This document shows positions 3,495 through 50,384 of a stretch of 64,000 nt of DNA, in pieces. The translations under genes were made by a program, and so were the position numbers. Positions within the stretch are counted from its first letter, which is position 1; every line of letters starts with the position of its first letter. This stretch comes from Gammaproteobacteria bacterium (GTDB taxonomy: Bacteria > Pseudomonadota > Gammaproteobacteria > Eutrophobiales > Eutrophobiaceae). The notes beneath the pieces are model-generated. The model did no database searches and was not told the DNA's origin. It saw nothing but the letters and a program-made list of their open reading frames with translations. The stretch spans positions 12,150 through 76,149 of the forward strand of contig JAJFKL010000045.1 in the NCBI GenBank assembly GCA_021773235.1, read 5' to 3'.

Positions 3495-4335
3495 ATGCGC
3501 AGAGTAACAACGTCAGCTGTATTAATGAGGCATGGAAATTTTTTCGTGCAATCTCTATTGTTGGTTGACGTACCAAATCAAAACTAGTCTTTAAAAAATA
3601 TAAGCCGCCACTAAGTGCACCCAATAAATATAACCAACCTAGGCCATAAAAATAAGGGAGTATTGAAACCAGTACTAATGCCAACGTATGAGCAAATATA
3701 ATTTTTGCTGCTACCGGCTTTTCAAACACTGCCGGCAACATAGGCACACCAGCTTGCTTGTAATCATTGGCAAATACAAATGCCAGGCTCCAGAAATGAG
3801 GAGGCGTCCAGAGAAACAAGACTATCGCCAATAATATTGGCGCTGGAGATAAGGAAGGGTCAACTACTGCCGCACCACCGAGCACAGCAAAACTACCCGA
3901 TAATCCACCAATGACAATATTTAGCCAAGTTCGTTGTTTTAGCCAAACGGTATAAACAACACCATAGGTGAATGCACCTAGAAAAACATAGAGTGCCGCG
4001 ACTGAGTTGATTGCTATTGAAGTTCCCACCACAGAGATTAGCAACATCAACCCAATAACAGTTAACCAGTATTTATCCGCCTGAAAACGACCTGTTACAA
4101 ACGGTCGATTTCGTGTGCGCTTCATGGTTGCATCTAAATCACGTTCAACAAATTGATTAAATGCACCAGCACTGGCTGATGACATCAGTATGGCTAAACA
4201 AAACAGAAATATCTTCCACGTTTCCGGCAACGGCCCCGGCGTAATTGCGAGACCTGCAAGCCCGGTTATCATTATCGCAAAACCGATCCTGAGCTTACAG
4301 ACTGATACTAACTCTCTAATAACACCGGGCATCAT
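3469..4335 (-). CDS. ctaB: Protohaem IX farnesyltransferase (haem O synthase)
   Basis: 288 aa polytopic protein with the UbiA-family motif NQFVERDLDATMKRTRNRPFVTGR. Confidence 0.9.
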   Translation of the reverse strand: MMPGVIRELVSVCKLRIGFAIMITGLAGLAITPGPLPETWKIFLFCLAILMSSASAGAFNQFVERDLDATMKRTRNRPFVTGRFQADKYWLTVIGLMLLISVVGTSIAINSVAALYVFLGAFTYGVVYTVWLKQRTWLNIVIGGLSGSFAVLGGAAVVDPSLSPAPILLAIVLFLWTPPHFWSLAFVFANDYKQAGVPMLPAVFEKPVAAKIIFAHTLALVLVSILPYFYGLGWLYLLGALSGGLYFLKTSFDLVRQPTIEIARKNFHASLIQLTLLLCACVLDVLVI

Positions 4336-4351
4336 TATGAATGCTCCTGAC

Positions 4352-6046
4352 TTAACGCAGTGGCCAGACTTCTGCTAAGTATTTCCAGTTAACAAAGTAG
4401 TAAAGTACAAAACTCGTAAAAAAGACAACAACCAAAACAATCGTGCCCGGAATCGCAGGATGTTCTTCGTCACCATGCTCGGCAACAACTGCTGCATTTT
4501 CATCGGTAGGTACAGCCGTAGGTGCTTCAGTACTATCAACCTTCTTACCAAAGAATATCGAACCCACTGCAACAGCGATAAACATAGCACCGCCCACCCC
4601 AGCTAAAATTGCACTCATACCATTCAAGCCCATCATCAGATTGGCTGCACCTGGAAAATCATAAGGAAGCACCGCATCAGCCTGAGAAATATCCCAATGG
4701 CGTCTTGGCACACCCAGAGTTCCTGCGCCCATCATGAACACAGAGATACCAGCAACACCCAGTCCGAAGACGTAGGGCTGAAGCTTTGCCATTCCAGGAA
4801 ACATTATCTCTTTTTGAAAAATAAGCGGAATTAATAAATAGGTCACAGCCATAAATGCCAGTGTGGTCCCTGCTACAACGGTCGCATGAAAATGTCCTGG
4901 CACATATATAGTGTTATGAATTATCAGGTTGATTTGCTCAACCCCCATAACAACACCCGATATGCCACCAAGAAAGCCAAACAGTATCAAGGAAACAAAC
5001 ATCCCTGAGAAAGCGGGATTTCCCCATGGGCATTTACGTAGCCATTCAAACAGTCCATTGGTATAGCCTTTACTACGTTGTGCTGCTTCGATCTGTCCTG
5101 GCACAGTCATACCATGAACCATACTTCCGAGTACCGCCAAATAGATGGCATAACTGGTATTAAAGATTTTCCACTCAGAGCTGATACCTGGATCAACTAG
5201 TAAATGATGCGCACTGGCAAGTTGTAGAAACAGTACATAGAGGAGGAAAGCACCGCGACTAACTTTTTCAGACAAGGGTTTTGCACCCAATACCACTGCC
5301 GATATTAAATACCAGATAGAGATATGCGCCGCAACATTGATCTGTTGTGATGAATGTCCAAATGCCCACCATATAGTCCGATACATTAAAGTATCAATAT
5401 GGCTAACATAGCCGATAGACCACAGAAAAGTTGGTATTAGTATGATTGCACCTGATGCAATCGTAAACACAGCAATAATGGCTGCCACCGTTGCACCAAA
5501 GGTTACCAGGGGCACCGAACCTTCATACGTTTTTTCCTGTTTCGCTATTACCAACGTGCCGAAGAAAACAAAGCAACCGATCAAGGCACCCACGGCGAAA
5601 AGTATGACACCTGCGTAAAACGAAGGATCTGCTTTTAATGGCACATAGGATGTAAACATGACACTTGAACCACCCTGTAATACGGCAATATTAGTGACAA
5701 TTGCACCAATCAACATCAAGGCAAAACCAGCCCACGCCCATTTTGGTGTTGCCAGTCGACTCCCTAAAAGTACCGACGAGGCAAAATATAAGACCGCCAT
5801 TTCAAAGAAAATGATCCATACCACCAAGAGATTTATGCCATGTGCGGTAAGCGCAAGATAAAACCAATCTGCAGGTAACAAGTGGACAGCCTTCCAACGC
5901 GTTAATGCCACCATTATCCCAAAGAGTCCACCGACAAGCAGGAAGACTACCGCTACCACGGCGTTTGCCTTAATCAGATTTTCAGCTGATTTATAAACAC
6001 GTAACCCTGTCGTTTGGCATGTTCTGTACTGTTCATTAATTGCCAT
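4352..6046 (-). CDS. Haem-copper oxidase superfamily subunit I, B-family-like, lacking the cross-link tyrosine (candidate NO reductase subunit)
   Basis: 564 aa, about 13 TM. His ligands at TAHGINL (H69), WWAFGHSSQQ (H231), SAHHLL (H280/281) and PGHFHATV (H385/387). Gln sits at H231+4 where HPxVY enzymes have Tyr. Confidence 0.9.
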   Translation of the reverse strand: MAINEQYRTCQTTGLRVYKSAENLIKANAVVAVVFLLVGGLFGIMVALTRWKAVHLLPADWFYLALTAHGINLLVVWIIFFEMAVLYFASSVLLGSRLATPKWAWAGFALMLIGAIVTNIAVLQGGSSVMFTSYVPLKADPSFYAGVILFAVGALIGCFVFFGTLVIAKQEKTYEGSVPLVTFGATVAAIIAVFTIASGAIILIPTFLWSIGYVSHIDTLMYRTIWWAFGHSSQQINVAAHISIWYLISAVVLGAKPLSEKVSRGAFLLYVLFLQLASAHHLLVDPGISSEWKIFNTSYAIYLAVLGSMVHGMTVPGQIEAAQRSKGYTNGLFEWLRKCPWGNPAFSGMFVSLILFGFLGGISGVVMGVEQINLIIHNTIYVPGHFHATVVAGTTLAFMAVTYLLIPLIFQKEIMFPGMAKLQPYVFGLGVAGISVFMMGAGTLGVPRRHWDISQADAVLPYDFPGAANLMMGLNGMSAILAGVGGAMFIAVAVGSIFFGKKVDSTEAPTAVPTDENAAVVAEHGDEEHPAIPGTIVLVVVFFTSFVLYYFVNWKYLAEVWPLR

Positions 6047-6049
6047 TGT

Positions 6050-6595
6050 TTATATCCCCTCGTTATCGACGACATATATCCTGCCGAGCATTGTGTGATG
6101 TCCAATACCACAATATTCATTACAGACGACTCCAAATTCCCCTGTCGTCGTAGGTGTAACTGTGAGCACCATTTCGTAATCAGGATGTATTTGTAAGTTA
6201 ATATTTATCGGCTGCAAAGAAAAACCGTGCATCCAGTCCAAAGAAGATAAGTGAAGTCGATATGACTGACCTTTTTCCAATTCCAGGATTGGCCACCACT
6301 GCCAGAGTCTGGCAATCATATAGACATCTGAACCAGGAGGCGGACGGACAACCGGATAACCGGATTCTTCACGGACTGTATATTTATCCGTCATTGCTTC
6401 AGTTTTTTCAGTGAACTGTTCTGCTGTGATTTTATATGCTTCGTTAGATAAGTTTTGTTCACCATAAGCGTGCCAGTAGATCATCATGAAAAACATAATC
6501 AATCCCCAGACGAAAGCGACGATGACCCAGATAAGCTCGGATTTTGGGACAGAATCATTCCACCAGATCCTGCTTTTTGGAGGGGTAACTGACAT
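6050..6595 (-). CDS. Haem-copper oxidase subunit II with CuA centre
   Basis: 181 aa. N-terminal TM hairpin, cupredoxin domain with HGFSL and the CuA motif CNEYCGIGHHTM. A 3-nt gap separates it from subunit I. Confidence 0.85.
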   Translation of the reverse strand: MSVTPPKSRIWWNDSVPKSELIWVIVAFVWGLIMFFMMIYWHAYGEQNLSNEAYKITAEQFTEKTEAMTDKYTVREESGYPVVRPPPGSDVYMIARLWQWWPILELEKGQSYRLHLSSLDWMHGFSLQPININLQIHPDYEMVLTVTPTTTGEFGVVCNEYCGIGHHTMLGRIYVVDNEGI

Positions 6596-6615
6596 AGTGT
6601 TGTCTCCTTAAATTA

Positions 6616-6792
6616 TTATTTTGCTACAGGGATGGTAATGATTTCCATAATGCCCCAGATAACATAAAAGACAGTTGGAATAGTGACGCCGAGAAAGAGC
6701 AATAGAAAAGGATTATCTATTATCTGTTGCATGACTGGTATTCGTTCAGATTCTGTGTCGCTATCGCTAGACACGCCATTTTCTTCAGACAT
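6616..6792 (-). CDS. Small single-TM protein, first gene of the oxidase operon (possible extra subunit)
   Basis: The track ORF 6616..6843 is trimmed here to the internal ATG at 6792, which has a GGGGG Shine-Dalgarno 4 nt upstream. Acidic N-terminus, then TM FLLLFLGVTIPTVFYVIWGIMEI. Confidence 0.45.
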   Translation of the reverse strand: MSEENGVSSDSDTESERIPVMQQIIDNPFLLLFLGVTIPTVFYVIWGIMEIITIPVAK

Positions 6793-6913
6793 ATCGCCCC
6801 CTAATATATTAAAAGATCGTAGATATACTCTACTTTCATACATTTAATTTGAGTGCGACAATTTGTCCACTCAATTATAGAGAGCCAATCTATGCTGTAT
6901 TTAATCTATATGT

Positions 6914-6927
6914 CTTGACCTAGATCA
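6914..6927 (-). promoter_or_regulatory. FNR/Dnr-type box (TTGAC-CTAG-ATCAA, 9/10) upstream of the oxidase operon
   Basis: Read directly from the sequence. A TAGATT -10-like hexamer lies about 31 bp downstream on the minus strand, which is class II spacing. Confidence 0.55.
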
Positions 6928-6972
6928 AGAAGAATGGTGGAATAATACAACGAACTTATATTTCTAATATAT

Positions 6973-7155
6973 TCAACCACTTAGGGCGCGTATTACAGTA
7001 AAGGAACTCACGGCAAGTATCAAAATAATTACAAAAAAGACTAGACTGCGATACTCAAATTTTCGGCCCGAGGCTTTTTCAATCTGCACCAGTATCCAGT
7101 CTGAACCGAGATAAAGGATAATTCCGGCTAAGGTGTATGCCACTATTTCAGTCAT
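6973..7155 (-). CDS. Small two-TM membrane protein (hypothetical)
   Basis: 60 aa with two hydrophobic helices. AGGAT-like ribosome-binding site upstream. No recognisable motif. Confidence 0.35.
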   Translation of the reverse strand: MTEIVAYTLAGIILYLGSDWILVQIEKASGRKFEYRSLVFFVIILILAVSSFTVIRALSG

Positions 7156-7288
7156 TTGATTTTATCCTGATTCATTGTTTCATAAGGTCATGGTAATAAT
7201 GAATTTGCATTACTCTGTAATTTATTATTTACTCAATTCATAATTTAAAACAACCACTCATTTTAAAATTGTAACGCCTTAATAAACT

Positions 7289-8272
7289 TTGCTTGTATCA
7301 ATCATGCAATTCCTTAAAAGCAATCACTATCCAAAGAAATGTTTTTTTCTTTTGAATTGTAGCGCCTTAATCATGTCGTTACTGATTGTATTTTTAAGCA
7401 CACACATCAGGCTCGGAGAAGCGGGCTTGGGTTGCTCCCCATGGCCTGATTGTTATGCACAGCTCTCTTTTGCTGATGGTCCCAAAGGACTTCAAATACC
7501 GGACTCCGAATTTAAAATATTTCGGTCTATGCATCGCAGCATAGCAAGTATATTGGGTCTTAATATTTTAGTTATCATGTTAATAGCACTTTGGTTTCGC
7601 AAAACAACATCACCGTTATTACCAATATTGATGTTTCTAGTTGTTCTTTTTCTTTCAATATTAGGAATTGCGACACCGACAAGAAGTTTACCCCTTGTTA
7701 CATTGGGAAATATTCTAGGCGGTATAGTTTTGTCAGGTCTTGTATGGAGACAAATCCTGTCGACTAAAGACAGACCGAAAAAATCCGCACCCTTTATTTT
7801 GTTTCTAGTATCTATAACACTGACAGTGCAACTGATCAGTGGTGCCTGGGCAAGTGCAAATTACACGGGATCTGCCTGCCCGAAATTATTATCATGCACC
7901 TATACGAATGACATAACAGGCAACCTGCTCGATAGCTTAAATGTATTACGCAAACTAACACTGGATAGTGATTGCCATCTGATACTGAATGAAACATCCA
8001 GCATTATTCAATTTAACCATAGGCTCATCGCCGTAATATTATTAATAATAATTGTTGTAGCCTTATGGAAAGTAAGACGTGAATACCCCTCTTTACTCAA
8101 ACCATTAATGATTGTCAGTGTTGTTTTCTTTGCTGAGTTTATTCTCGGGGTCGTTAATGTATTAACTGAAATGCCGTTATGGACAAACACACTGCATAAT
8201 TTATTAGCAGTGGGATTATTATTTGCTACGATTAATTTAACGATGCTAATTCATCGCAATAGTGGCCATTAA
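7289..8272 (+). CDS. ctaA: Haem A synthase (COX15/CtaA family)
   Basis: 327 aa, about 8 TM. Cys pair GLGCSPWPDC, a second pair CPKLLSC, and conserved His in SMHRS, FNHRL and LHNLL. Start uncertain (TTG at 7289 or ATG at 7304). Confidence 0.75.
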   Translation: MLVSIMQFLKSNHYPKKCFFLLNCSALIMSLLIVFLSTHIRLGEAGLGCSPWPDCYAQLSFADGPKGLQIPDSEFKIFRSMHRSIASILGLNILVIMLIALWFRKTTSPLLPILMFLVVLFLSILGIATPTRSLPLVTLGNILGGIVLSGLVWRQILSTKDRPKKSAPFILFLVSITLTVQLISGAWASANYTGSACPKLLSCTYTNDITGNLLDSLNVLRKLTLDSDCHLILNETSSIIQFNHRLIAVILLIIIVVALWKVRREYPSLLKPLMIVSVVFFAEFILGVVNVLTEMPLWTNTLHNLLAVGLLFATINLTMLIHRNSGH

Positions 8273-8296
8273 CACTAGATATAACGGGATCATCTA

Positions 8297-8725
8297 ATGA
8301 GTATTGTTTGGAATAATAGAAAAAACTGGGTAAAAAGTGCACACAATACAAAATGGTGCCTGATTGGTTGTTCTATTGGAGATTTTGGTACGATTGCTTA
8401 TTTTCAGTTCAGCGAGCATAGCTTAACAACTATTACCGTTATGCTATTAGCTATGTTAAATGGCCTGTTAACAAGCATCTTACTTGAGACTATTATTTTG
8501 TATCGTTCGAGCTTCAGTTTACGAGATGCATTTATGACTGCTATTGGTATGAGTTTTATCTCCATGTTGGCAATGGAGACCGCAATGAATCTAACAGACT
8601 ATATGTTGACTGGTGGGGCGATATTGACTTGGTGGGTAATCCCCATTGCACTGTTTGTCGGTTTTATAACACCTTGGCCTTATAATTATTGGCGCTTACA
8701 AAGACATGGAAAATCTTGCCATTAA
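8297..8725 (+). CDS. Small 4-TM membrane protein, possibly DUF4396-like
   Basis: 142 aa. WCLIGCSIGDFG motif in the first TM. The family assignment is from memory only. Confidence 0.45.
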   Translation: MSIVWNNRKNWVKSAHNTKWCLIGCSIGDFGTIAYFQFSEHSLTTITVMLLAMLNGLLTSILLETIILYRSSFSLRDAFMTAIGMSFISMLAMETAMNLTDYMLTGGAILTWWVIPIALFVGFITPWPYNYWRLQRHGKSCH

Positions 8726-8811
8726 TAATCAACCGTAAAATTATTTAATCAATCTGATTTAAGTCTGGAAGCGAAACAAACATATCAAATCGATATAAAC
8801 TCTATAACTTA

Positions 8812-10182
8812 TCAACTTTGTATTTGTTCCGTTGATTTATTTAACATCGCTTTGATCACAATAACAATAAACATAAAACCACCAACCGCAGACAGTAACC
8901 CACCTATTCCCATTACGCCCATTCCGGCAATACGCTCTATTGAATCCAAACCCTGTGCAGCGCCAGCAACTTTTCGTTGAACACCGTATCCCCCAGACCA
9001 GACCAGACCGGCAATATGGAGAAACTGTCCTGAGGCATAGAACCAAAGCTGTATTTTCGAAAGCTTGAAATTAACTTTGATAAAACCCAAGGCGGGTAAT
9101 AATTGATAACAAAGCCCCATCAATGCCAATGAAACACCAACAATACAACCATGGTAATGCGCAGGGATCTTGACGTTATTGCCATCAATCATGAAACCCA
9201 TCATGCCCCCTACTCCGAATAACATTAACGAAGTCAGTAAGGCAGCATACGCTGAAGATCCTTTAGCTGAATCTACTTTCTTTTGAAACAGTGTAAATAA
9301 TATCGCCATACTCAACGGAAATACGGCAAGGCTTCCGCCAAAACTCATCAACATAGTAAATATTTGACGATGAGAAATATCTGTAACGTCATACGCATAG
9401 TAAACAAGTGGTGTCGCAAATATTGAGAGCAAACCAACACCAAACAAAAATAAGGCAACTCTCGGACTTAATGGTAGAGAGAGTCCAGCACTCGATAATA
9501 ACCATAACCAGGCCACCATCATTAACAAAGTATAGGTAAATTGAAGTACGTGTCCCCCACCCCAGAAAAGGAGTTCGTAATAAACTTCACTGACTAATTG
9601 AATAGGCAAACTAATGTATGACCAGACAAAGGCTGCCAGCGCGACAAAAACGCCAATCGCTGCACAATTTAATCCAAATCGAATAACACCTTGACCGCTA
9701 ATCGTTTCCCCAACCTTAGTCATTGCACTCATACTGAATATAACTTGCAATCCGATTCCCGCACCGAAAATAACTAGGCCAACAAGAAAAAGTGAATCAT
9801 CCAACACTGGAATATAATTACTCATTAGTGCATTGGCACTGCCCATAAAAGGTGAAATAGTAATTATCAGGGTTCCTAGAAGTACAACAATAAAACTCAA
9901 TCGAGCAAGCCATGGAAATACAGGACGACTATTTAGGCTCCATAGGACACTCGCAAAAGATAATATCCACACTAAAGAAGACAGGTTGACATGTATAACC
10001 AGAGCTGTGTGGAAGAAATCAACGAATGGAATAAGTTCACCGACTATCGGTGTTCTGGCAAGAACCAACAATACTGAGAAAATTCCTGCCCCAAATAAAG
10101 TAAGTATAGCTAACCAGAACCAGGCAACTGCCAGATCTCTTCTATAATCAGTTGGCACGTCAAGTACATATTTAAAAAACAT
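8812..10182 (-). CDS. Divergent NorB/CcoN-like (haem-copper oxidase subunit I-like) 12-TM protein lacking the HH metal-ligand pair
   Basis: 456 aa. FFHTALVIH (H58/H64), LFWGGGHVLQF (H211) and PAHYHG (H342/H344) match the spacing of NorB/CcoN ligands. There is no HH doublet anywhere, and the expected region reads PLVYYAYDVTDISHR. Confidence 0.7.
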   Translation of the reverse strand: MFFKYVLDVPTDYRRDLAVAWFWLAILTLFGAGIFSVLLVLARTPIVGELIPFVDFFHTALVIHVNLSSLVWILSFASVLWSLNSRPVFPWLARLSFIVVLLGTLIITISPFMGSANALMSNYIPVLDDSLFLVGLVIFGAGIGLQVIFSMSAMTKVGETISGQGVIRFGLNCAAIGVFVALAAFVWSYISLPIQLVSEVYYELLFWGGGHVLQFTYTLLMMVAWLWLLSSAGLSLPLSPRVALFLFGVGLLSIFATPLVYYAYDVTDISHRQIFTMLMSFGGSLAVFPLSMAILFTLFQKKVDSAKGSSAYAALLTSLMLFGVGGMMGFMIDGNNVKIPAHYHGCIVGVSLALMGLCYQLLPALGFIKVNFKLSKIQLWFYASGQFLHIAGLVWSGGYGVQRKVAGAAQGLDSIERIAGMGVMGIGGLLSAVGGFMFIVIVIKAMLNKSTEQIQS

Positions 10183-10205
10183 ATCTAATCAGTGACGCTT
10201 ATTAG

Positions 10206-10700
10206 TTAATAACTCAAAATAGACTTTTTATTTGAATCTGATTTTATAAACACCAGACCCATTGCTAAACCAAACAAGAGTTTTGAGATCAAGGTCACTA
10301 TAAGAGGCATTAAGGAAATAAATGATGGATTGAGTATCGGTAAAACAACAAAGAAATTAACAACCCACACAATGGCGAGCGTTGTAAAACTGCATACAAT
10401 AACACTACGGTTACCAAATTGACGAGCTACTGATTTTAATATTATTGCATTAAAAGAAATGGCTAATATCAGTGACAGTATCAAATGGAACAGGATACCA
10501 AGCATCGGTGCATAATAGGAGGTCGCTGTGAAAGGCAATAGTGTCACTGATATTTCTCGCGCTACATTTGTCGCACTAACTGAACTCAGGGAGCTATATA
10601 GACTAACCCAGAAGATTTCCATCATGCCACCAACTATTCCGGCTGTAATCACAGTTACATCTAAACTATTAATCTCGCTGCGGGAATATTTATTCTGCAT
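10206..10700 (-). CDS. Polytopic membrane protein (hypothetical), between nirN and the NorB-like gene
   Basis: 164 aa, 4-5 predicted TM helices, no recognisable motif. Same strand as its neighbours, with short gaps. Confidence 0.5.
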   Translation of the reverse strand: MQNKYSRSEINSLDVTVITAGIVGGMMEIFWVSLYSSLSSVSATNVAREISVTLLPFTATSYYAPMLGILFHLILSLILAISFNAIILKSVARQFGNRSVIVCSFTTLAIVWVVNFFVVLPILNPSFISLMPLIVTLISKLLFGLAMGLVFIKSDSNKKSILSY

Positions 10701-10743
10701 AAAACTTAAATCCTGTTTTTAGAATACCTAGTTTAACGTATTG

Positions 10744-12324
10744 TTAATGACTGGTGCCGCTGGATCTCGTAATTTTATTATAGACATTATATTTCCCAGA
10801 AGGCTTTTTCATCGGGAGTCGTTTAATCTCTTCGAGTGAATTAGCATCATAAATTATAATAGCACCATCGTTATCCCAAATACTCAATATCGCATAGCGT
10901 CCATCTTTTGTGAACTCAACATGCGCTGCTGTTTTACCAGGTTCCGGCTTGAGTGTTTTTACAATTTCCAAAGTGGCTTTGTCGATAATATGAACGACAT
11001 CTTTATTTGGCCCAAAGAACACATCGACCCATGCATAAGGTGTTTTTTCATGACTACGCATAAAGAACCCCGGTCCTTGTGTGTCAATACGTTTAATCGT
11101 CTTCCAGTCATTCATATCAATGACACTAACAACACCGTCTTTCAGGTTTGGGGTGGCGAGTATAGGTTTACCTTGGTATTCCCAAGTAATCCCTGAGCCC
11201 ATATGAGGTAAGCCCGGAAGATCAAGTTCTGAGTCTTTCTTTCCCAGAACCAAATCAACAACCTGGCCATTCTTTGAATTTCTGGCAGCCCCAATCAAGT
11301 ATTCATATTTCTGATCAAAGAAGAAGTCATCTAGATAATCATCCAACTCTATACGGCGCACTGGAAAAGGTTCTTGTTCCGGTGGCCCTTCATCTCGATG
11401 GTCATGTACCCAACCATAAAATGGCGGGTTATCTGAATAAGGAATTTCCCAAACTTCAGTAATGTCTTTTAATGCAGCAATAAAACTTTCACGCGGCCCT
11501 GCATCATAAACAGCACTAACACGTGAACTGTTTCCTGAATTATCTTTTACCTCGATAAGTTTGACCGGTGATAAGTCAGAGGTATTGAATATAACCAGCG
11601 TATGCGGCAAATAATTCGCGGCAATCACGTAACGACCATCACTGGATGTTGCAATGTTGCGTGTGTTTATTCCTGCACGAACTTCTGCCACTGTTTTCAG
11701 GTTATACATATCAAATTTTGATATCCAACCATCTCTCGACACAAAGAATACAAAGCGACCATCGGGTGAATATTTTGGCCCACCATGTAATGCATGTCGT
11801 GTTTTAAAACGGTGAATGGGTTCAAAGCGATCACCATCCAATACTGTTGCATGATGGTCGCCTGTTTCTACAACCAGAAACAGATTGAGAGGGTCAGCAT
11901 CAAATGTTGGTTTATTGCTTAATTGATCGTCCTTGAAATATTGAACGCGAGATTGCGTTATTTCTTTCATTCCCCACGCTGGCATTTCTTTTAATGGGGT
12001 ATAAATAAGATCTACCAGTAATGAAATTTCCTCATCATTTAGCTTACTGCCAAATGCAGGCATTTGCGTTGCTGCTAATCCATCACGTATCGATGCTGCA
12101 GCTTTTTTAGGTCTGACACGTTTTAGGTTTTCCGGGAGTAATGCCGGGCCAATACTGCCGAGACGATCCTGACCATGACATTCGGCACAATTATTTTTAT
12201 ACAATTGGGATACATCTGATTCTGCATAGACAGGAATCAGTCCACTTGTAATTATAATTAATAAAATTGAATTTAAGGTATTGAATCTAGATAACAACGG
12301 CATCGTTTGTGTTTTTCTCTTCAT
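10744..12324 (-). CDS. nirN: Cytochrome cd1-family protein NirN (dihydro-haem d1 dehydrogenase)
   Basis: 526 aa. Signal peptide, haem c motif CAECHG, then a d1-type beta-propeller paralogous to NirS/NirF. Lies after nirJ, as in Pseudomonas nirJEN. The start may be M8 (12303). Confidence 0.8.
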   Translation of the reverse strand: MKRKTQTMPLLSRFNTLNSILLIIITSGLIPVYAESDVSQLYKNNCAECHGQDRLGSIGPALLPENLKRVRPKKAAASIRDGLAATQMPAFGSKLNDEEISLLVDLIYTPLKEMPAWGMKEITQSRVQYFKDDQLSNKPTFDADPLNLFLVVETGDHHATVLDGDRFEPIHRFKTRHALHGGPKYSPDGRFVFFVSRDGWISKFDMYNLKTVAEVRAGINTRNIATSSDGRYVIAANYLPHTLVIFNTSDLSPVKLIEVKDNSGNSSRVSAVYDAGPRESFIAALKDITEVWEIPYSDNPPFYGWVHDHRDEGPPEQEPFPVRRIELDDYLDDFFFDQKYEYLIGAARNSKNGQVVDLVLGKKDSELDLPGLPHMGSGITWEYQGKPILATPNLKDGVVSVIDMNDWKTIKRIDTQGPGFFMRSHEKTPYAWVDVFFGPNKDVVHIIDKATLEIVKTLKPEPGKTAAHVEFTKDGRYAILSIWDNDGAIIIYDANSLEEIKRLPMKKPSGKYNVYNKITRSSGTSH

Positions 12325-33857: not shown

Positions 33858-33877
33858 AAATGGCGCGCCCGGAAGGA
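33858..33877 (-). repeat. Direct repeat of the tRNA-Arg 3' end (att-like), partner at 36843..36862
   Basis: AAATGGCGCGCCCGGAAGGA is identical at both sites. The last 17 nt are the 3' T-stem, acceptor and CCA of tRNA-Arg. Confidence 0.7.
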
Positions 33878-36623: not shown

Positions 36624-36845
36624 AATTCTTGACTGCCACCTTGCGAGTTATATTATTGTTGTAATGAATATTATTCCGGTATCTGTTTATATATCGGCAA
36701 TTCAGACGGGAACGGGACTATTTCAATCAACCTTATTCGGCTAAGTATATACTTAGCCGTAAAGTGTTGTAATAAGTATGGAGCGGTCATTTTGGCTTCG
36801 TAGTCTTGTACGAATTAAGGTCGATGGTTTGAAAGTGTCTGAAAA

Positions 36846-36922
36846 TGGCGCGCCCGGAAGGATTCGAACCTCCGACCCCCTAGTTCGTAGCCAGGTACTC
36901 TATCCAGCTGAGCTACGGGCGC
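36846..36922 (-). tRNA. argV: tRNA-Arg (anticodon ACG)
   Basis: Reverse complement GCGCCCGTAGCTCAGCTGGATAGAGTACCTGGCTACGAACTAGGGGGTCGGAGGTTCGAATCCTTCCGGGCGCGCCA folds as a cloverleaf with a CT-ACG-AA anticodon loop. Confidence 0.95.
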
Positions 36923-44058: not shown

Positions 44059-44679
44059 TTAGGCTTTTACAATCAAGTAACTTCCAGCTCCAACCATGAA
44101 ACCACCAGCTAACTTTTTTGCACCTTTTTGAAGCTTCATTCCTTGTGTCATATACATTACTTTTTTTGCAATAACTGCGTAGGTAACTTTTACTCCGCCA
44201 ACTGTCGCAATAGTTACAAATATAATTATCAGCAAATCTAAATATTCTATAGCTGCCAAGTCTATAAAAGCTGGAAATAAACTCACATAGAAAAATATTG
44301 CTTTAACATCACCAAGGGTTAAGAAGAACCCTGACAAAAAGCTGACTAAGATATTTCCTCTTAATTTTGATTCATCGACAGTATAGGTGGAATTATTTTG
44401 TGATGTTAATAATGAATATCCGATCCAAAGAAGATAAGCGCCACCAATGTATTTTATAATTACAAACATAGCGCCCATAGTTTCTGCTATAACTGATAAA
44501 CCAAGTATCGCTAAAAATATGAATACGAGATCACCAAGAACGATACCCAGAGCTACTGCCACACCATTAGATATACCAAGAGTAGCTGAACGAGTAATCA
44601 CCAGAGCAACACTTGCACTTGGAATTACCGCAAGTGTAATCATAATTAAGAAAAGTGAAACAACATCAAGAAAATTCAT
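44059..44679 (-). CDS. LysE/RhtB-family amino-acid exporter
   Basis: 206 aa, 6 TM. N-terminal PGP-less variant of the LysE pattern (ITLAVIPSASVALV...). Confidence 0.8.
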   Translation of the reverse strand: MNFLDVVSLFLIMITLAVIPSASVALVITRSATLGISNGVAVALGIVLGDLVFIFLAILGLSVIAETMGAMFVIIKYIGGAYLLWIGYSLLTSQNNSTYTVDESKLRGNILVSFLSGFFLTLGDVKAIFFYVSLFPAFIDLAAIEYLDLLIIIFVTIATVGGVKVTYAVIAKKVMYMTQGMKLQKGAKKLAGGFMVGAGSYLIVKA

Positions 44680-44736: not shown

Positions 44737-45234
44737 TCATTCTGAATCTTTTTGCAAAAGCTCTATTAAACCTTGTATTGCTAATAGACAAGACTGTTCT
44801 CTGACCTTTAAACGGCCACCCTCAAATCGAATTCGTGTCGTTGTTCCTCCATTCCCTCGCTTGTACCAGCCCAAGCATACTGTGCCGACAGGTTTGTCTT
44901 TTGTTCCACCGTCTGGACCGGCTACCCCAGTTATCGCTACGCTATAATCTGCACGACTATTTTCGACGGCACCTCTGGCCATAGCGCTTGCTGCTTCTTC
45001 ACTGACGGCACCATATTGTTGAAGCGTATCGAACGGGACAGCTAACATTTCTTGCTTGGCTTCATTGGAATAAGTCACAAAGCCTCGTTCAAACCAGGCA
45101 GAACTACCCGGTATACGTGTCAAAATTTCAGCGAGTCCGCCGCCAGTGCATGATTCAGCTGTCGTTAACTTGCTTGAAGTTTTTAAAAACAGTTCCGCAA
45201 GTTGTTCAGCTTGTCGTGTTGCTACATCACTCAT
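44737..45234 (-). CDS. CinA-family protein / NMN amidohydrolase PncC-like
   Basis: 165 aa. TAESCTGGGLA motif and GVAGPDGG. Confidence 0.85.
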   Translation of the reverse strand: MSDVATRQAEQLAELFLKTSSKLTTAESCTGGGLAEILTRIPGSSAWFERGFVTYSNEAKQEMLAVPFDTLQQYGAVSEEAASAMARGAVENSRADYSVAITGVAGPDGGTKDKPVGTVCLGWYKRGNGGTTTRIRFEGGRLKVREQSCLLAIQGLIELLQKDSE

Positions 45235-45692
45235 GATGACTTACTTCTTTTGTCTTTAAAGAATGTCTGTATTAATGAACGACACTCATCTTCCATTATG
45301 CCTTTGTCTATTTCAACCTTGTGATTTAATTCTTCTGCTTGTAGTAGGTTAAAGATGCTGCCACACGCGCCTGTTTTAGGATCTGTAACTGCGAAAATTA
45401 TTTTGGAAAGTCTTGCATGAATAATAGCACCTGCACACATGGCGCAAGGCTCGAGCGTGACATACATCGTTGAATTAGGTAGCCGATAGTTGCCAACATT
45501 ATTACCAGCATCACGTAACGCTATCATTTCAGCATGTGCTGTGGGGTCGTTACTTGAGATAGGTTGATTCCAACCTTCGCCAATAATTTTATCTTCATGA
45601 ACAATGACTGCGCCAACAGGGACTTCATCATGCGCTCTCGCTTTTTGCGCTAATTCTAAAGCACGCTGCATCCATTTGACATCATTGTTCAT
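45231..45692 (-). CDS. tadA: tRNA adenosine(34) deaminase
   Basis: 153 aa. HAEMIAL and PCAMCAGA zinc motifs. Confidence 0.9.
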   Translation of the reverse strand: MNNDVKWMQRALELAQKARAHDEVPVGAVIVHEDKIIGEGWNQPISSNDPTAHAEMIALRDAGNNVGNYRLPNSTMYVTLEPCAMCAGAIIHARLSKIIFAVTDPKTGACGSIFNLLQAEELNHKVEIDKGIMEDECRSLIQTFFKDKRSKSS

Positions 45693-45697
45693 AATAA

Positions 45698-46351
45698 TTA
45701 GCTTTCTTCATACAAGCTTAATCCATTCGCGTTTTCTTCTGCTTCGTTAGTATTTGCCTTACTCTTTTTTCTTACAGGGTTAATCGTTGATTGGACAACC
45801 CACTCTTCATTAAACAACCCCGGTTTTGTTACTACTGTTATATACCTTCCTTTTTTAATTCTACTCAATTCTCGGTATTCATCCTTATTTAATCTCAGCT
45901 GGATGAACTCAGGCGTCTTCCGCCAGTGTTTAATTTTTGCCTGATAAGAATATTTATCACCAAAGCCCTTGTTGCCATAAAGATATTTTTTAAACGCATC
46001 TTCTACTTTAACGTCAAAGGTTTCTTCATCTTGTTGATCAAATGCACCGTTAATTATATAGCCTGCACTAAATAGAAAATAAGGGGTAGCAATAAAATTA
46101 ATGACAAGCCAGCTTGTAACATCGACAGCCCGGTAAGATTTTAGAAATTTACTTTTAATACCTTTTAAGATCAGAATAAACCCAATAATTACTGTTAAGA
46201 TGGTTACTGATAATGAAATGATATTCTCATCAACGATTCTATAATTTTCTGTAGAATAGACTAAGAAAAAAGAGCCTATGACAAAAGCAGCAATAGCAGA
46301 AATTTTTAAAAGTACAATCTTCGTATCTATATCTTTATTTTTATCGACCAT
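45698..46351 (-). CDS. Hypothetical membrane protein
   Basis: 217 aa. Three to four N-terminal TM helices, then a soluble Lys-rich domain. No recognisable motif. Confidence 0.5.
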   Translation of the reverse strand: MVDKNKDIDTKIVLLKISAIAAFVIGSFFLVYSTENYRIVDENIISLSVTILTVIIGFILILKGIKSKFLKSYRAVDVTSWLVINFIATPYFLFSAGYIINGAFDQQDEETFDVKVEDAFKKYLYGNKGFGDKYSYQAKIKHWRKTPEFIQLRLNKDEYRELSRIKKGRYITVVTKPGLFNEEWVVQSTINPVRKKSKANTNEAEENANGLSLYEES

Positions 46352-46375
46352 AGATAATTCATATAACGCTAAATT

Positions 46376-46457
46376 TTATTCCCACTAGATCGTGGCTGTG
46401 GGTTTCCCTGATAGGTCATAGCTTACGCGCGAGATGCTATCGATTTTATTAATGATC
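46376..46457 (-). pseudogene. Decayed duplicate of the guaA 3' end
   Basis: Ungapped hand alignment with 47199..47280 gives 61/82 identities. It translates as IINKIDSISRVSYDLSGKPTATI*WE*, against the GuaA C-terminus [26 protein letters not shown]. Confidence 0.8.
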
Positions 46458-47150
46458 TTGTATCCATTCTCTAGCTAGTTTCTGGGCTGTTTCAATTTCG
46501 GACAGTGTCATTTTCTTTGAAATATAATTTATGTATGTTACTGATATCTCATTTCCATTTTCTAATGCAATATCAAACCATTTAAGTGCCTCTATATAAT
46601 CATGGGGGACACCATGTCCGCTCTTATACATCTCGCCAAGATTGAACTGTGCTTTTACATCACCCTGCTCTGCTGAGGCGTTGAACCAGTGTAGTGCTTG
46701 CTTATAATCACGAGGGGTTCCTTGTCCATTCTTATACATATTACCTAGGTTAACTTGTGCCTCAACAAGTCCCTGCTCAGCAGCACTTCTGTACCAGTTA
46801 AATGCTTGTTCATAATTCTCTTTAACACTACCTTTATCACGGTACTGTCCATTTATATACATAATGCCAATATTGTATTTTGCCTCGGCAACACCCTGCT
46901 CTGCTGCTTTCTTGTACCAATAAAATGCTCTCTTATAGTCTTGAGATACGCCTACTCCTGCATCGTACATCATGGCAAGACTGAACTGTGCTGCTACCTC
47001 ACCTTCTTCTGATAATTTTTCATATAATGAAAATGCAGTGGAATAATCATGAAGCATGAATGCTTCGTCAGCATCTAAAAGCTCATTCGAATAAATAGAT
47101 AATGAGTTTAGTAGCAGAATGAATAAAATTATTTTTTTAAATTTCTTCAT
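46449..47150 (-). CDS. Secreted Sel1-like (TPR-type) repeat protein
   Basis: 233 aa. Signal peptide and about five repeats of the type A.....G..GV.QDY..A..WY.KAAEQG. Confidence 0.85.
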   Translation of the reverse strand: MKKFKKIILFILLLNSLSIYSNELLDADEAFMLHDYSTAFSLYEKLSEEGEVAAQFSLAMMYDAGVGVSQDYKRAFYWYKKAAEQGVAEAKYNIGIMYINGQYRDKGSVKENYEQAFNWYRSAAEQGLVEAQVNLGNMYKNGQGTPRDYKQALHWFNASAEQGDVKAQFNLGEMYKSGHGVPHDYIEALKWFDIALENGNEISVTYINYISKKMTLSEIETAQKLAREWIQDH

Positions 47151-47198
47151 GATTTTTATTTTCTTTGATCACGAATATATGAAGAGAACTAAAAAATA

Positions 47199-48773
47199 CT
47201 ATTCCCACTCAATCGTGGCTGGAGGCTTACCTGAAATATCATAAGTTACACGCGAGATACCTTCGACTTCATTGATAATTCGATTAGAAACATGTCCGAG
47301 AAAATCGTAGGGTAAATGTGCCCAATGTGCGGTCATGAAATCTACGGTTACAACAGCACGTAGTGAAACGACGTAATCATATTTACGCGCATCGCCCATT
47401 ACACCGACAGACTTAACCGGAAGGAAAACGGTAAAGGCTTGGCTCACTTCGTCGTATAAATTATTCGCACGAAGTTCTTCAATGAAGATATTGTCTGCAA
47501 GGCGAAGTAGATCCGCATATTCCTTTTTAACTTCTCCTAAGATCCTTACACCTAAACCAGGTCCAGGAAACGGATGCCGATAAACCATTTCTTTTGGTAA
47601 ACCAAGCTGCACGCCTAAGCGTCTTACTTCATCTTTGAAGAGTTCGCGTAAAGGTTCAACTAATTCCATCTTCATGGTGTCGGGCAACCCACCCACATTG
47701 TGATGTGATTTAATCACATGTGCCTTACCGCTCTTGGCGCCGGCAGATTCGATCACATCAGGATAGATTGTACCTTGCGCCAACCACTTCATGTCGTCGA
47801 AATCGTTTGAATGCTCTTCAAAGATTTTGATGAATTCACCACCGATAATCTTACGTTTAACTTCCGGGTCTTCAACACCACTAAGTCCATCGAGAAAACG
47901 TTGTTCGGCATCTACCCGAATGACATTAATACCCATATGTTCGGCGAAGGTTTCCATCACTTGGTCACCCTCATTCAAGCGCAATAAACCGTTATCAACA
48001 AAGACACAGGTTAATTGATCGCCAATCGCTTCGTGTAATAGTGCGGCGACAACTGAAGAATCAACGCCGCCCGATAATGCTAACAAGACTTTATCATTAC
48101 CGACCTGCTCTTTAACGCGTGCTATACCGTCTTCGACAATGTTCTCTGTCGTCCAAAGTGAATGACATCCAGCGACTTCATGTAGGAATCGTTGCAGGAT
48201 TGCCTGTCCTTGGGTGGTATGTGTTACTTCTGGATGAAATTGTAGTCCGTAAAACTTTCTCGACTCATCCGCAATACCGGCAATGGGCGCGTTATCAGTA
48301 GAGGCAATCACTTTGAAACCTTCCGGTATTGCGTCAACGCGATCGCCATGACTCATCCAAACATCTAATAAACCATGTCCTTCATCATTGACTTCATCTT
48401 GTATGTCTTTCAATAGGTTTGAATGTCCACGTGCTCTGATTTGCGCATATCCAAATTCGCGCAACTCGGAATTAGCCACCTTTCCACCCAGTTGTTCAGC
48501 CATCGTCTGCATCCCATAACAGATTCCAAGTATGGGTATGCCCATATCGAAAACTATCTCTGGTGCCCTGACCTTGTTCAGCGCTGTAACTGACTCTGGT
48601 CCACCGGATAAAATAATGGCGTTAGGTTTGAAATCTTTTATTGCCTGTTCATCCATATCAAAGGCATGGATTTCACTATAAACGCTCGCTTCACGAACGC
48701 GTCTGGCTATGAGTTGTGTGTATTGCGATCCAAAATCCAGGATCAGGATACGTTCGGAATGTATATCAGTCAT
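47199..48773 (-). CDS. guaA: GMP synthase (glutamine-hydrolysing)
   Basis: 524 aa. GATase domain (GICYGMQ), the SGGVDSS PP-loop, and C-terminal ...PPATIEWE. Confidence 0.97.
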
Positions 48774-48800: not shown

Positions 48801-50261
48801 TTAAACTCTGTAGTTTGGTGGTTCTTTTGTGATCGTCACATCATGCACATGGCTTTCTTTATAACCCGCATTACTGATACGAGTGAACTTGGCCTTTTCC
48901 CGCATCTCTTTCAGAGATGAACATCCTGTGTAACCCATAGCGGCACGGATACCACCCGTCATTTGGTGGATTATAGCGGCCAGCGGACCTTTATAAGGAA
49001 CTCGTCCTTCGATACCTTCTGGTACCAATTTTTCAATTTCATCATTCTCCTGAAAATAACGATCAGATGAACCATGTTGTTGCGACATTGCACCTAATGA
49101 TCCCATACCTCGATAAGATTTATAGGAACGCCCCTGATAAAGCTCAACTTCACCCGGTGCTTCCTCGGTACCTGCAAACATACCACCCATCATCGTGCTA
49201 TGTGCACCGGCAGCGAGAGCTTTGGCGATATCACCTGAATAACGAATACCGCCATCAGAAATCAGTGGTACTCCTTTGCTTTTTAGCGCTTCCGCAATAT
49301 TTGCCACCGCAGAGATCTGAGGCATGCCTACACCGCTCACTACACGCGTTGTACATATTGAGCCTGGCCCAATACCAACCTTAACCGCATCTGCGCCAGC
49401 ATCAACTAGCGCAAGTGCTGCATCAGCAGTCGCAATATTGCCGCCGATAACCTGAGTATCTTTGAAGTTTTTCTTTACCCACTTGACCATGTCCAACACA
49501 CCTTTGGAATGTCCATGTGCTGTATCGACCACAATAACGTCAACACGTGATTCTACAAGTTGTTCAACACGTAGCTGTGAAGATTCACCGACACCTACAG
49601 CAGCACCTACACGCAAGCGCTCAGAGGTATCAATACAGGCACTAGGGAAATCTGATGCCTTTTGCATATCTTTTACTGTTATTAAGCCTGCGAGTTGAAA
49701 TTGATCATTAACAACTAGGACTTTTTCAATTCGGTGTTTATGCAAGAGAGCACGGACTTCTTCCTTTGTCGCATTTTCTCGGACTGTTACAAGGTCATCC
49801 TTACGCGTCATAATATTGCGCACAGGATCATCCGTTTTCTTTTCAAAACGTAAATCCCTACTGGTAACAATACCCACCAGCTCATCACCATCGACAACCG
49901 GCACGCCAGAGATATTTTTTTCACGCGTTAATTCGATAACTTCCTGGATACTGGTATGAGGTCCAACGGTTAATGGCTCTTTGATAACTCCACTTTCATA
50001 TTTTTTCACTCGCCTTACATTCTTGGCCTGTAATTCGGGACTCATATTCTTATGGATTATGCCGATACCACCTTCCTGAGCTAACGCTATTGCCAGGCCC
50101 GATTCAGTCACCGTATCCATGGCAGCGGACACAATAGGCACGTTTAGAGTTATTTCTCGGGTTAGCAGGGTTTGTAATGAGACTTCGCGCGGTAAGACCT
50201 CAGAATAATCTGGTATTAGTAAAACATCATCAAAGGTAAGCGCTTCTTCAGCAATAATCAT
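48801..50261 (-). CDS. guaB: IMP dehydrogenase
   Basis: [12 protein letters not shown]-terminus, CBS pair and the catalytic [11 protein letters not shown] loop. Trimmed to the ATG at 50261. Confidence 0.97.
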
Positions 50262-50384
50262 GAGATTTCCATATGTTGGCAAATAAATGTAAAAATAAAA
50301 TAACCGTGAATTATAGCCCCAACTCGTTCTACGGCAACCGTCTTCTGCTTTGTTTCAGTATTCTTTTCGCTTAACATAAATATC

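Follow-up and report, generated by a model that had tools for sequence, protein, structure and literature searches.

A decayed second guaA 3′ end marks the insertion of a sel1 cassette between guaA and tadA in an uncultured marine gammaproteobacterium

In the draft genome of an uncultured marine gammaproteobacterium (2.87 Mb, assembly 81% complete; termed G000 below), the 3′ end of guaA, the gene for GMP synthase, occurs twice: once in the intact gene and once more, in decayed form, behind a small gene for a Sel1-repeat protein. The locus raises the question of what kind of event left this second copy, which we call psi. The region is part of a 64,000-nt stretch of DNA (positions 12,150 to 76,149 of contig JAJFKL010000045.1, assembly GCA_021773235.1), the window, to which coordinates refer unless another genome is named; other G and L numbers denote the genomes and loci that were compared with it. 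Read along the minus strand, the order is guaB, guaA, a leader, sel1, psi, a spacer, mem217, tadA, and cinA. A previous interpretation made from the letters of this DNA, the sequence-only reading, had proposed that an element integrated into guaA, that one of the two gene ends is foreign, and that the integrase and most of the cargo were subsequently lost. Our analysis shows that the repeat is real and is an old, decayed, and non-functional scar, left when a sel1 cassette was inserted at the end of guaA. As the origin of this scar we tentatively favor a homology-anchored insertion-duplication, a route that operates without an integrase.

The functional copy of the repeat (47199..47280, minus strand) consists of the last 26 guaA codons, the stop codon, and one further base, and psi (46376..46457, minus strand) spans 27 codons. 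Upon realignment the two copies matched without gaps at 61 of 82 positions, as the sequence-only reading had reported, and its translation of psi, IINKIDSISRVSYDLSGKPTATI*WE* with an in-frame TAG as codon 24, was reproduced exactly. The similarity was also far above that of shuffled sequence, a comparison whose failure, according to the earlier reading, would have refuted it: 200 shuffled queries reached at most 43 identities, and the best other 82-mer in the window, on either strand, reached 41. The binomial chance of the match is ~7e-20 per position and ~1e-14 across the whole window. The similarity to guaA begins 81 to 82 nt ahead of the stop codon and ends at the stop codon, and the start of psi overlaps the last 9 nt of sel1, including its stop codon. 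The functional guaA is an intact open reading frame (ORF) of 524 aa (47199..48773, minus strand) whose product is 88 to 98% identical to the guaA proteins of the genus, and the 26 residues encoded by the functional repeat copy are 92 to 100% identical to those of relatives in the genus, including species in which nothing is inserted.

The interval between the two copies is filled entirely by sel1 (46449..47150, minus strand), the inserted cargo and the only ORF there, together with a leader of 48 nt that extends from the guaA stop codon to the sel1 start codon (47151..47198, minus strand) and is conserved in G020, G008, G009, G022, and L225. The 233-aa Sel1 protein matched PF08238 with 155.5 bits (cut-off, 30.7; E = 1.5e-46) in four stretches, as is characteristic of proteins with several Sel1 repeats. 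Of the earlier description of a secreted Sel1-repeat gene lying alone between the copies, the solitary position and the family assignment were confirmed, and secretion is suggested by an N-terminus that, judged by eye, resembles a signal peptide. A search of 46376..47280 for replication, mobilization, or excision genes (repA/C, alpA, relaxase, oriT) found none.

The same scar is present in relatives. A genus-wide search with the guaA C-terminus detected a second copy in three genomes only (G000, G008, and G009), in each case immediately behind a sel1 orthologue, and whole-genome searching recovered the second copy in the same three genomes independently. In G008 the order is guaA, sel1, psi, mem217, and tadA, and psi has no stop codon. 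In G009, guaA, sel1, and psi are followed by unrelated sequence that extends to the contig end and has no match elsewhere; this genome lacks mem217, and its tadA-bearing contig begins with a different gene. As G009 carries psi without mem217 and G000 and G008 carry both, psi is not tied to mem217. In G020 and G022, sel1 is followed by the first 14 to 23 nt of psi, a spacer of ~125 nt, and tadA. Loci L225, L226, and L138 belong to one metagenome organism with a sel1 product of 253 aa, whose C-terminus in L225 runs into the tail of mem217 (...NGLSDYHEEM* vs ...NANGLSLYEES*) 12 nt before tadA; L225 derives from the full form by a deletion that fused sel1 to the mem217 tail. All five psi copies or stumps have A at the first position of codons 5 and 7 (V to I and G to S). 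Functional guaA ends have G at the first position of codon 7 in 22 of 22 aligned genomes and at the first position of codon 5 in all of these except G010 and G014. Since all copies share these two derived changes, psi arose once and travelled with sel1.

The sequence-only reading had taken the 26% divergence of the two copies as a sign that one of them was foreign-derived. Psi differs from the functional copy of its own genome at 20, 20, and 21 of 81 positions in G000, G008, and G009, respectively (0.25 to 0.26), and the psi copies of different species differ from each other at 17 to 24 of 81 positions (0.21 to 0.30), somewhat less than sel1 diverges at synonymous sites in these pairs. Psi thus drifts at a roughly neutral rate, and the divergence is explained by an insertion that somewhat predates the last common ancestor of the cassettes and by near-neutral decay since then. 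A distant foreign source is not needed, because this decay and the synonymous drift of the functional copy account for the numbers. The raw differences between psi and guaA are distributed as 6/1/13 over the three codon positions (p = 0.004), whereas those assigned by eye to the psi lineage by comparison with members of the genus are distributed as 6/1/6, which is not significant (p = 0.15); the raw bias is due mostly to synonymous drift of the functional copy. A foreign functional origin, considered on the basis of the raw codon bias, was dropped in view of the psi-assigned changes. Over codons 8 to 23, the G000 psi most closely resembles the functional ends of sister species (8/48 differences, with few informative sites). 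The functional ends of G000 and L225, which are not sisters, differ at ~2/60 positions compared to ~9/60 elsewhere (p about 0.01, post hoc). Both observations hint that in G000 the functional end may have come in with the cassette. When the copies were typed as native or element-derived over codons 8 to 23, G008 showed the pattern opposite to G000 (4/48 vs 9/48, not significant, with 3 to 4 informative sites).

These data also bear on the idea that psi has been retained because it serves sel1 or mem217, for instance as a regulatory or RNA element, or that it is an assembly artefact. Psi is retained in three species and lies between two co-oriented genes, and a search for terminator-like sites among guaA, sel1, and mem217 found none that separates these genes. 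However, its divergence between species is about neutral, its stop codons and changes differ from species to species, and it was deleted in G020, G022, and L225 while sel1 was kept. Its presence in independent assemblies of three species shows that psi is not an assembly artefact. Taken as a whole, this explanation is very improbable.

What the insertion site looked like before the insertion is evident from the backbone guaB-guaA-tadA-cinA, which is found in the genus as well as in other families. In the window, guaB (48801..50282), tadA (45231..45692; tRNA adenosine deaminase, assigned by Pfam and synteny), and a cinA/pncC-type gene (44737..45234; PF02464 and synteny) represent this backbone, all on the minus strand. 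In G005, G010, G014, and G015, guaA and tadA are separated by only 15 to 18 nt; the site was ancestrally empty, with guaA directly followed by tadA. The proposed insertion of DNA at the guaA 3′ end is therefore borne out by the alignment of relatives, which gives guaA-tadA as the ancestral arrangement, and by the restriction of close sel1 orthologues (78 to 87% identity) to this slot of this genus. All other Sel1 proteins found, wherever they occur, are at most 57% identical, and none of those whose loci were fetched lies near guaA. Scanning the genome collection for sel1 identified only G008 and G009, and a metagenome scan combined with a protein search added one close relative, L138/L225, from a single organism; neither the genome nor the metagenome collections searched contained a relative with an intact integrative-element version of the cassette.

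Other species carry different genes in the slot: HipA and a mem217 homologue in G019, a dihaem cytochrome c peroxidase in G001, a GGDEF-motif protein on the opposite strand in G011 and G004 (by eye), a 424-aa Sel1 protein in G013, and three small ORFs in G002. As the small cargo differs in almost every species, the guaA-tadA interval is a hot spot in which both sel1 and mem217 are accessory. The older accessory cargo of the slot in the window is mem217 (45698..46351, minus strand), which encodes a predicted membrane protein of 217 aa, is separated from psi by a spacer of 24 nt (46352..46375, minus strand), and had no match in Pfam or PHROG. Within the genus it occurs in G000, G008, and G019 only, each time directly upstream of tadA. 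Between G000 and G008 the synonymous divergence (dS) of mem217 is 0.25 (dN/dS 0.34), compared to 0.79 for guaA, 0.54 for tadA, and 0.54 for sel1; as it is below all three, mem217, too, seems to have been exchanged recently. The varied small cargo resembles that of other accessory-gene hot spots between core genes, where turnover via flanking homology, however, normally proceeds without the duplication of a flank that is seen at guaA here.

The distribution of sel1 does not follow the species. In the guaA tree, G000, G020, and G008 constitute a clade, L225 clusters with G005, G018, and G012, and G009 and G022 are distant, so that species with an empty or differently filled site fall between the sel1-bearing genomes. 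When clade A (G000, G020, G008, L225) was compared with G009 and G022 by the Nei-Gojobori method, dS was 1.7 to 2.5 or saturated for guaA, 1.0 to 1.5 for tadA, and 1.9 to 2.8 for cinA, but only 0.38 to 0.97 for sel1, which is 2 to 5 times below both flanking core genes. For the pair G020-G009, the fraction of third-position differences was 0.24 in sel1 vs 0.51 in guaA (Fisher p = 2e-12). Sliding windows revealed no long tract of low divergence extending into guaA, which argues that sel1 was exchanged as a unit with its left edge at the guaA end. These divergences indicate that the sel1 cassette was exchanged horizontally between lineages of the genus and that sel1 is much younger there than both of its flanks. 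The guaA gene itself is a mosaic among the species: over positions 58 to 240, G005 and L225 differ at 0 to 2 of 60 nt, and G000 and L225 at up to 19 of 60, indicating frequent homologous recombination in this core gene.

Integrases that target the guaA end are known. GIsul2 has att sites of 19 bp with an 8-bp core, GAGTGGGA, at the last guaA codons E-W-E (PMC9376610). The PIMEs integrate at the same guaA locus, and CIMEs, which are decayed integrative elements that keep attL and attR and have lost the genes for integration and transfer, have been described together with other guaA-targeting elements, namely ATE-1 and the Brucella IncP island (PMC5704250). The core identical to that of the GIsul2-type guaA integrases is present in the guaA gene of the window, again at codons E-W-E (47203..47210, minus strand; PMC9376610). 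Psi contains a core remnant, TAGTGGGA (46380..46387, minus strand), that matches it at 7 of 8 bases, a trivial result because psi is a copy of the guaA end.

When integrase-linked islands were sought in relatives, the guaA end proved to serve as an att site there as well, as the sequence-only reading had supposed. In G018, a 172-aa N-terminal integrase fragment is encoded directly after guaA (L035 1737-2255). It had no Pfam or plasmid match and a weak PHROG match of unknown function (E = 0.014), and it was assigned as an integrase solely through full-length homologues in other genomes. These are located directly downstream of guaA in three unrelated gammaproteobacteria, G283 (L125 670-1965), G088 (L124), and G103 (L126). 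The integrase of G283 (431 aa) matches PF00589 weakly, its 26 bits lying below the cut-off of 27.1, and belongs to a 5-kb element that is bounded by ATTGAGTGGGAATAG, a repeat of ~15 nt, and is followed in tandem by another element. In G022, guaA and sel1 are separated by a type I-C CRISPR-Cas locus. This island encodes Cas3, Cas5d, Csd1, a WYL regulator, a SWIM/DUF6880 protein, and a frameshifted tadA-like copy, has a CRISPR array with at least 27 repeats of GTCGCGCCTTCACGGGCGCGTGGATTGAAAC, and spans two contigs (L219, G022:C3:44000-56000, 3536-12001; L218, G022:C52:1-14000, 1-2845). Its right edge, ACAATCGAGTGGGAATAA, is a repeat of the guaA core of ~17 nt and is followed directly by the sel1 leader; an integrase was not seen in the parts read. 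Core-targeted insertions hence occur in the genus, and they duplicate about 15 to 17 nt, not 82 nt. PF12835 integrases, the kind that lies beside a psi in G238 (see below), were rejected as a guaA-linked kind, as only 1 of 30 of their loci is linked to guaA.

It is accordingly conceivable, though rather doubtful, that a guaA-specific tyrosine-integrase element inserted at guaA and that its integrase and other cargo were deleted, which would leave a CIME-type remnant with the functional guaA end as attL and psi as attR. Beyond the documented att site, the integrases of G018, G283, G088, and G103, and the core-bounded island of G022, this explanation has in its favor that the sel1 leader begins at the stop codon just past the core, that psi contains the core remnant, and that the window also holds an exact 20-nt repeat of a tRNA-Arg 3′ end. 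On the other hand, the cassette contains no integrase, and the G000 assembly, at its 81% completeness, contains no homologue of the guaA-linked integrase of G283 except for one match of 24% on contig C35. The repeats of known or observed guaA integrases measure 8 to 19 nt, and the deletion would have to end flush with both att sites and give identical junctions in three species. The replacement of the gene end in the manner of GIsul2, as proposed by the sequence-only reading, is not supported by the lengths, since the GIsul2 att site has 19 bp (PMC9376610), the repeat of G283 has ~15 nt, and the repeat here has 82 nt. Its assumption that an integrase and further cargo were later lost found no trace at the locus, where sel1 fills the interval and the same junctions recur in three species.

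The cassette shares with GIsul2 and the PIMEs the target at the very 3′ end of guaA and a cargo that starts right after the stop codon, but those elements encode a tyrosine integrase beside guaA along with replication or mobilization genes, whereas here sel1 is the sole ORF and the repeat is far longer. With the CIMEs it shares cargo between direct repeats of the end of a target gene and the absence of a recombinase, and the later element added at the same site in G022 resembles accretion. The repeat differs in length, far exceeding the att sites of integrases known to act on guaA, and no gene remnants of integrative and conjugative or integrative and mobilizable elements are present.

Long repeats of the guaA end also exist elsewhere. 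We searched 400 sampled gammaproteobacteria for second guaA ends, of which 355 gave a match. In four resolved cases, a second partial guaA end lies downstream of guaA on the same strand, with lengths of 151 nt (G090, L229; 89% identity to the own guaA), 196 nt (G282, L230; 89%), 340 nt (G049, L228; 87%), and 551 nt (G294, L231; 98.5%). Each of the four repeats ends at most 2 nt from the stop codon. The 2.4 to 9 kb of cargo between them include no site-specific integrase, G294 having only an IS21 element; the cargo consists of dehydrogenase, HIT, GST, and LysE genes in G090 and of AbiE, GGDEF, and IS21 genes in G294. A shorter copy of the guaA end, 51 nt in length, is present in G321 ahead of a HipA-like gene (by eye) and tadA. 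A variable start combined with a fixed end at the stop codon fits homology and selection for an intact guaA rather than a fixed crossover, and the absence of integrases from the four long repeats weighs further against an integrase-borne origin of psi.

The tentatively favored explanation is thus that psi is the scar of a homology-anchored insertion-duplication. A one-gene cassette, consisting of the 48-nt leader and sel1, would have been placed behind guaA, ahead of the older cargo already in the guaA-tadA hot spot, with the guaA 3′ end serving as a stretch of homology rather than as an integrase site. Either a circularized piece of foreign DNA with ~80 nt of guaA end and sel1 might have recombined into guaA in a Campbell-type insertion-duplication, or a linear piece anchored in guaA might have been joined illegitimately ~82 nt before the stop codon of the recipient. 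Both routes would leave guaA intact and a second copy of the guaA end behind the cargo. Only repeats that reach the stop codon leave guaA working, so that only such events would survive. While the recombination route itself is inferred, it is favored because integrase-bearing guaA elements duplicate 8 to 19 nt and the integrase-less repeats elsewhere measure 151 to 551 nt, and it is supported by the frequent recombination of guaA that is apparent from its mosaic structure.

Insertion-duplication and homology-facilitated illegitimate recombination are known mainly from laboratory crosses of naturally transformable bacteria. In these processes, as proposed for the present locus, one stretch of homology suffices, the homologous segment is found on both sides of the foreign DNA, and no recombinase of the element is required. 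A comparable outcome of site-specific integration is represented by e14 and phage 21 in icd of E. coli, prophages that have an integrase and a fixed crossover. There, a direct repeat extends from an internal point of the housekeeping gene to its stop codon, the gene remains intact, and the displaced pseudo-end lies beyond the insert. The guaA repeat likewise spans the distance from an internal point to the stop codon of its target gene, but no integrase is present here, and comparable repeats elsewhere vary from 151 to 551 nt.

Several observations weigh against homology-anchored insertion-duplication. Neither a circular form nor the donor arrangement nor microhomology at the junction could be demonstrated, and 82 nt is short for RecA-type integration, though longer than the minimum usually required. 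The sel1 leader begins precisely at the stop codon of guaA, a junction also used by the G022 island and by the elements of G018, G088, and G283; this junction and the core in psi fit a site-specific event equally well. The 82 nt contain too few informative sites to tell the origin of each copy. The ~125-nt spacer that takes the place of most of psi in G020 and G022 matches nothing in any fetched locus or in the G000 genome. Moreover, in G238 (L232, G238:C101, 1377-1457 plus flanks), a guaA-like psi of ~92 nt is located between a PF12835 integrase fragment and an IS91/ISCR-type transposase with an ISCR2-like end. The core of this psi runs into GGGAGTGACCGGCACTGGC, which is close to the published terIS of ISCR2, and terIS overlaps a GIsul2 att core.

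The two forms of the region behind sel1, full psi in some genomes and a stump with a spacer in others, can also be explained by a fusion of two existing alleles of the slot. A single illegitimate event, anchored on the side of tadA, would have joined guaA-sel1-spacer-tadA (X) to guaA-other cargo-tadA (Y), with the junction just past the sel1 stop codon in X and ~60 to 70 nt before the guaA stop codon in Y. The first 14 to 23 nt of psi would then be the 3′ flank of sel1, and only the remainder would derive from guaA. In agreement with this scheme, both forms are present in both lineages, the forms diverge right after GATAGCA at codon 7 of psi, and every shared derived change of psi lies in codons 1 to 7. 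In addition, the Sel1 C-terminus ...W..(D/K)H* is native to the family (G013, L227), so that the first ~9 nt of psi belong to sel1. Yet codons 4 to 7 of psi match guaA at 10 of 13 positions, by a count made by eye, in register with the rest, and the full psi without mem217 in G009 indicates that psi goes with sel1 and not with any one gene beyond it. As nothing in the data is related to the spacer of allele X, the steps cannot be placed in sequence. We consider this scheme unlikely, and retain homology-anchored insertion-duplication as the favored origin of psi.

Further features of the window and its relatives are as follows. The GC content is 0.444 in guaA, 0.362 in the interval between the copies, 0.370 in sel1, 0.327 in mem217, and 0.439 in psi. 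A second variable slot is located between cinA and a WYL regulator, where the window has a LysE-type exporter gene (44059-44679, GC 0.346). This slot is empty in G005, is occupied by a 480-aa photolyase-like gene in G008 (by eye) and by a LigT-type gene in L225, and contains similar ORFs of 171 to 173 aa in several other relatives. The exact 20-nt direct repeat mentioned above, AAATGGCGCGCCCGGAAGGA, is found at 33858..33877 and 36843..36862, one copy being the 3′ end of tRNA-Arg(ACG) (36846..36922). Relatives are recorded under the names 'Thiotrichaceae bacterium UBA973' and 'Gammaproteobacteria bacterium'.

The scar is real but ordinary; on its own psi is a small relic, and its value is that of a dated marker. 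The comparison also advises caution to annotators, who often take long duplications of a target-gene end as proof of an integrase-borne island: such duplications can arise without an integrase nearby, and at guaA the repeats were 8 to 19 nt long where an integrase was present and 82 to 551 nt long, and variable, where there was none. More speculatively, and with considerable doubt on our part, the unit of leader, sel1, and psi may still be movable as an integrase-less cassette via its 82-nt repeats, either by RecA-type recombination or by guaA-core integrases acting in trans, and the variable guaA duplications of 82 to 551 nt, all of which extend to the stop codon, may point to a general way in which hot spots beside essential genes are loaded in Gammaproteobacteria without an integrase. 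For this uncultured marine genus, the scar identifies the guaA-tadA interval as an active hot spot and shows that a Sel1-repeat gene, its product probably secreted, has moved from species to species.

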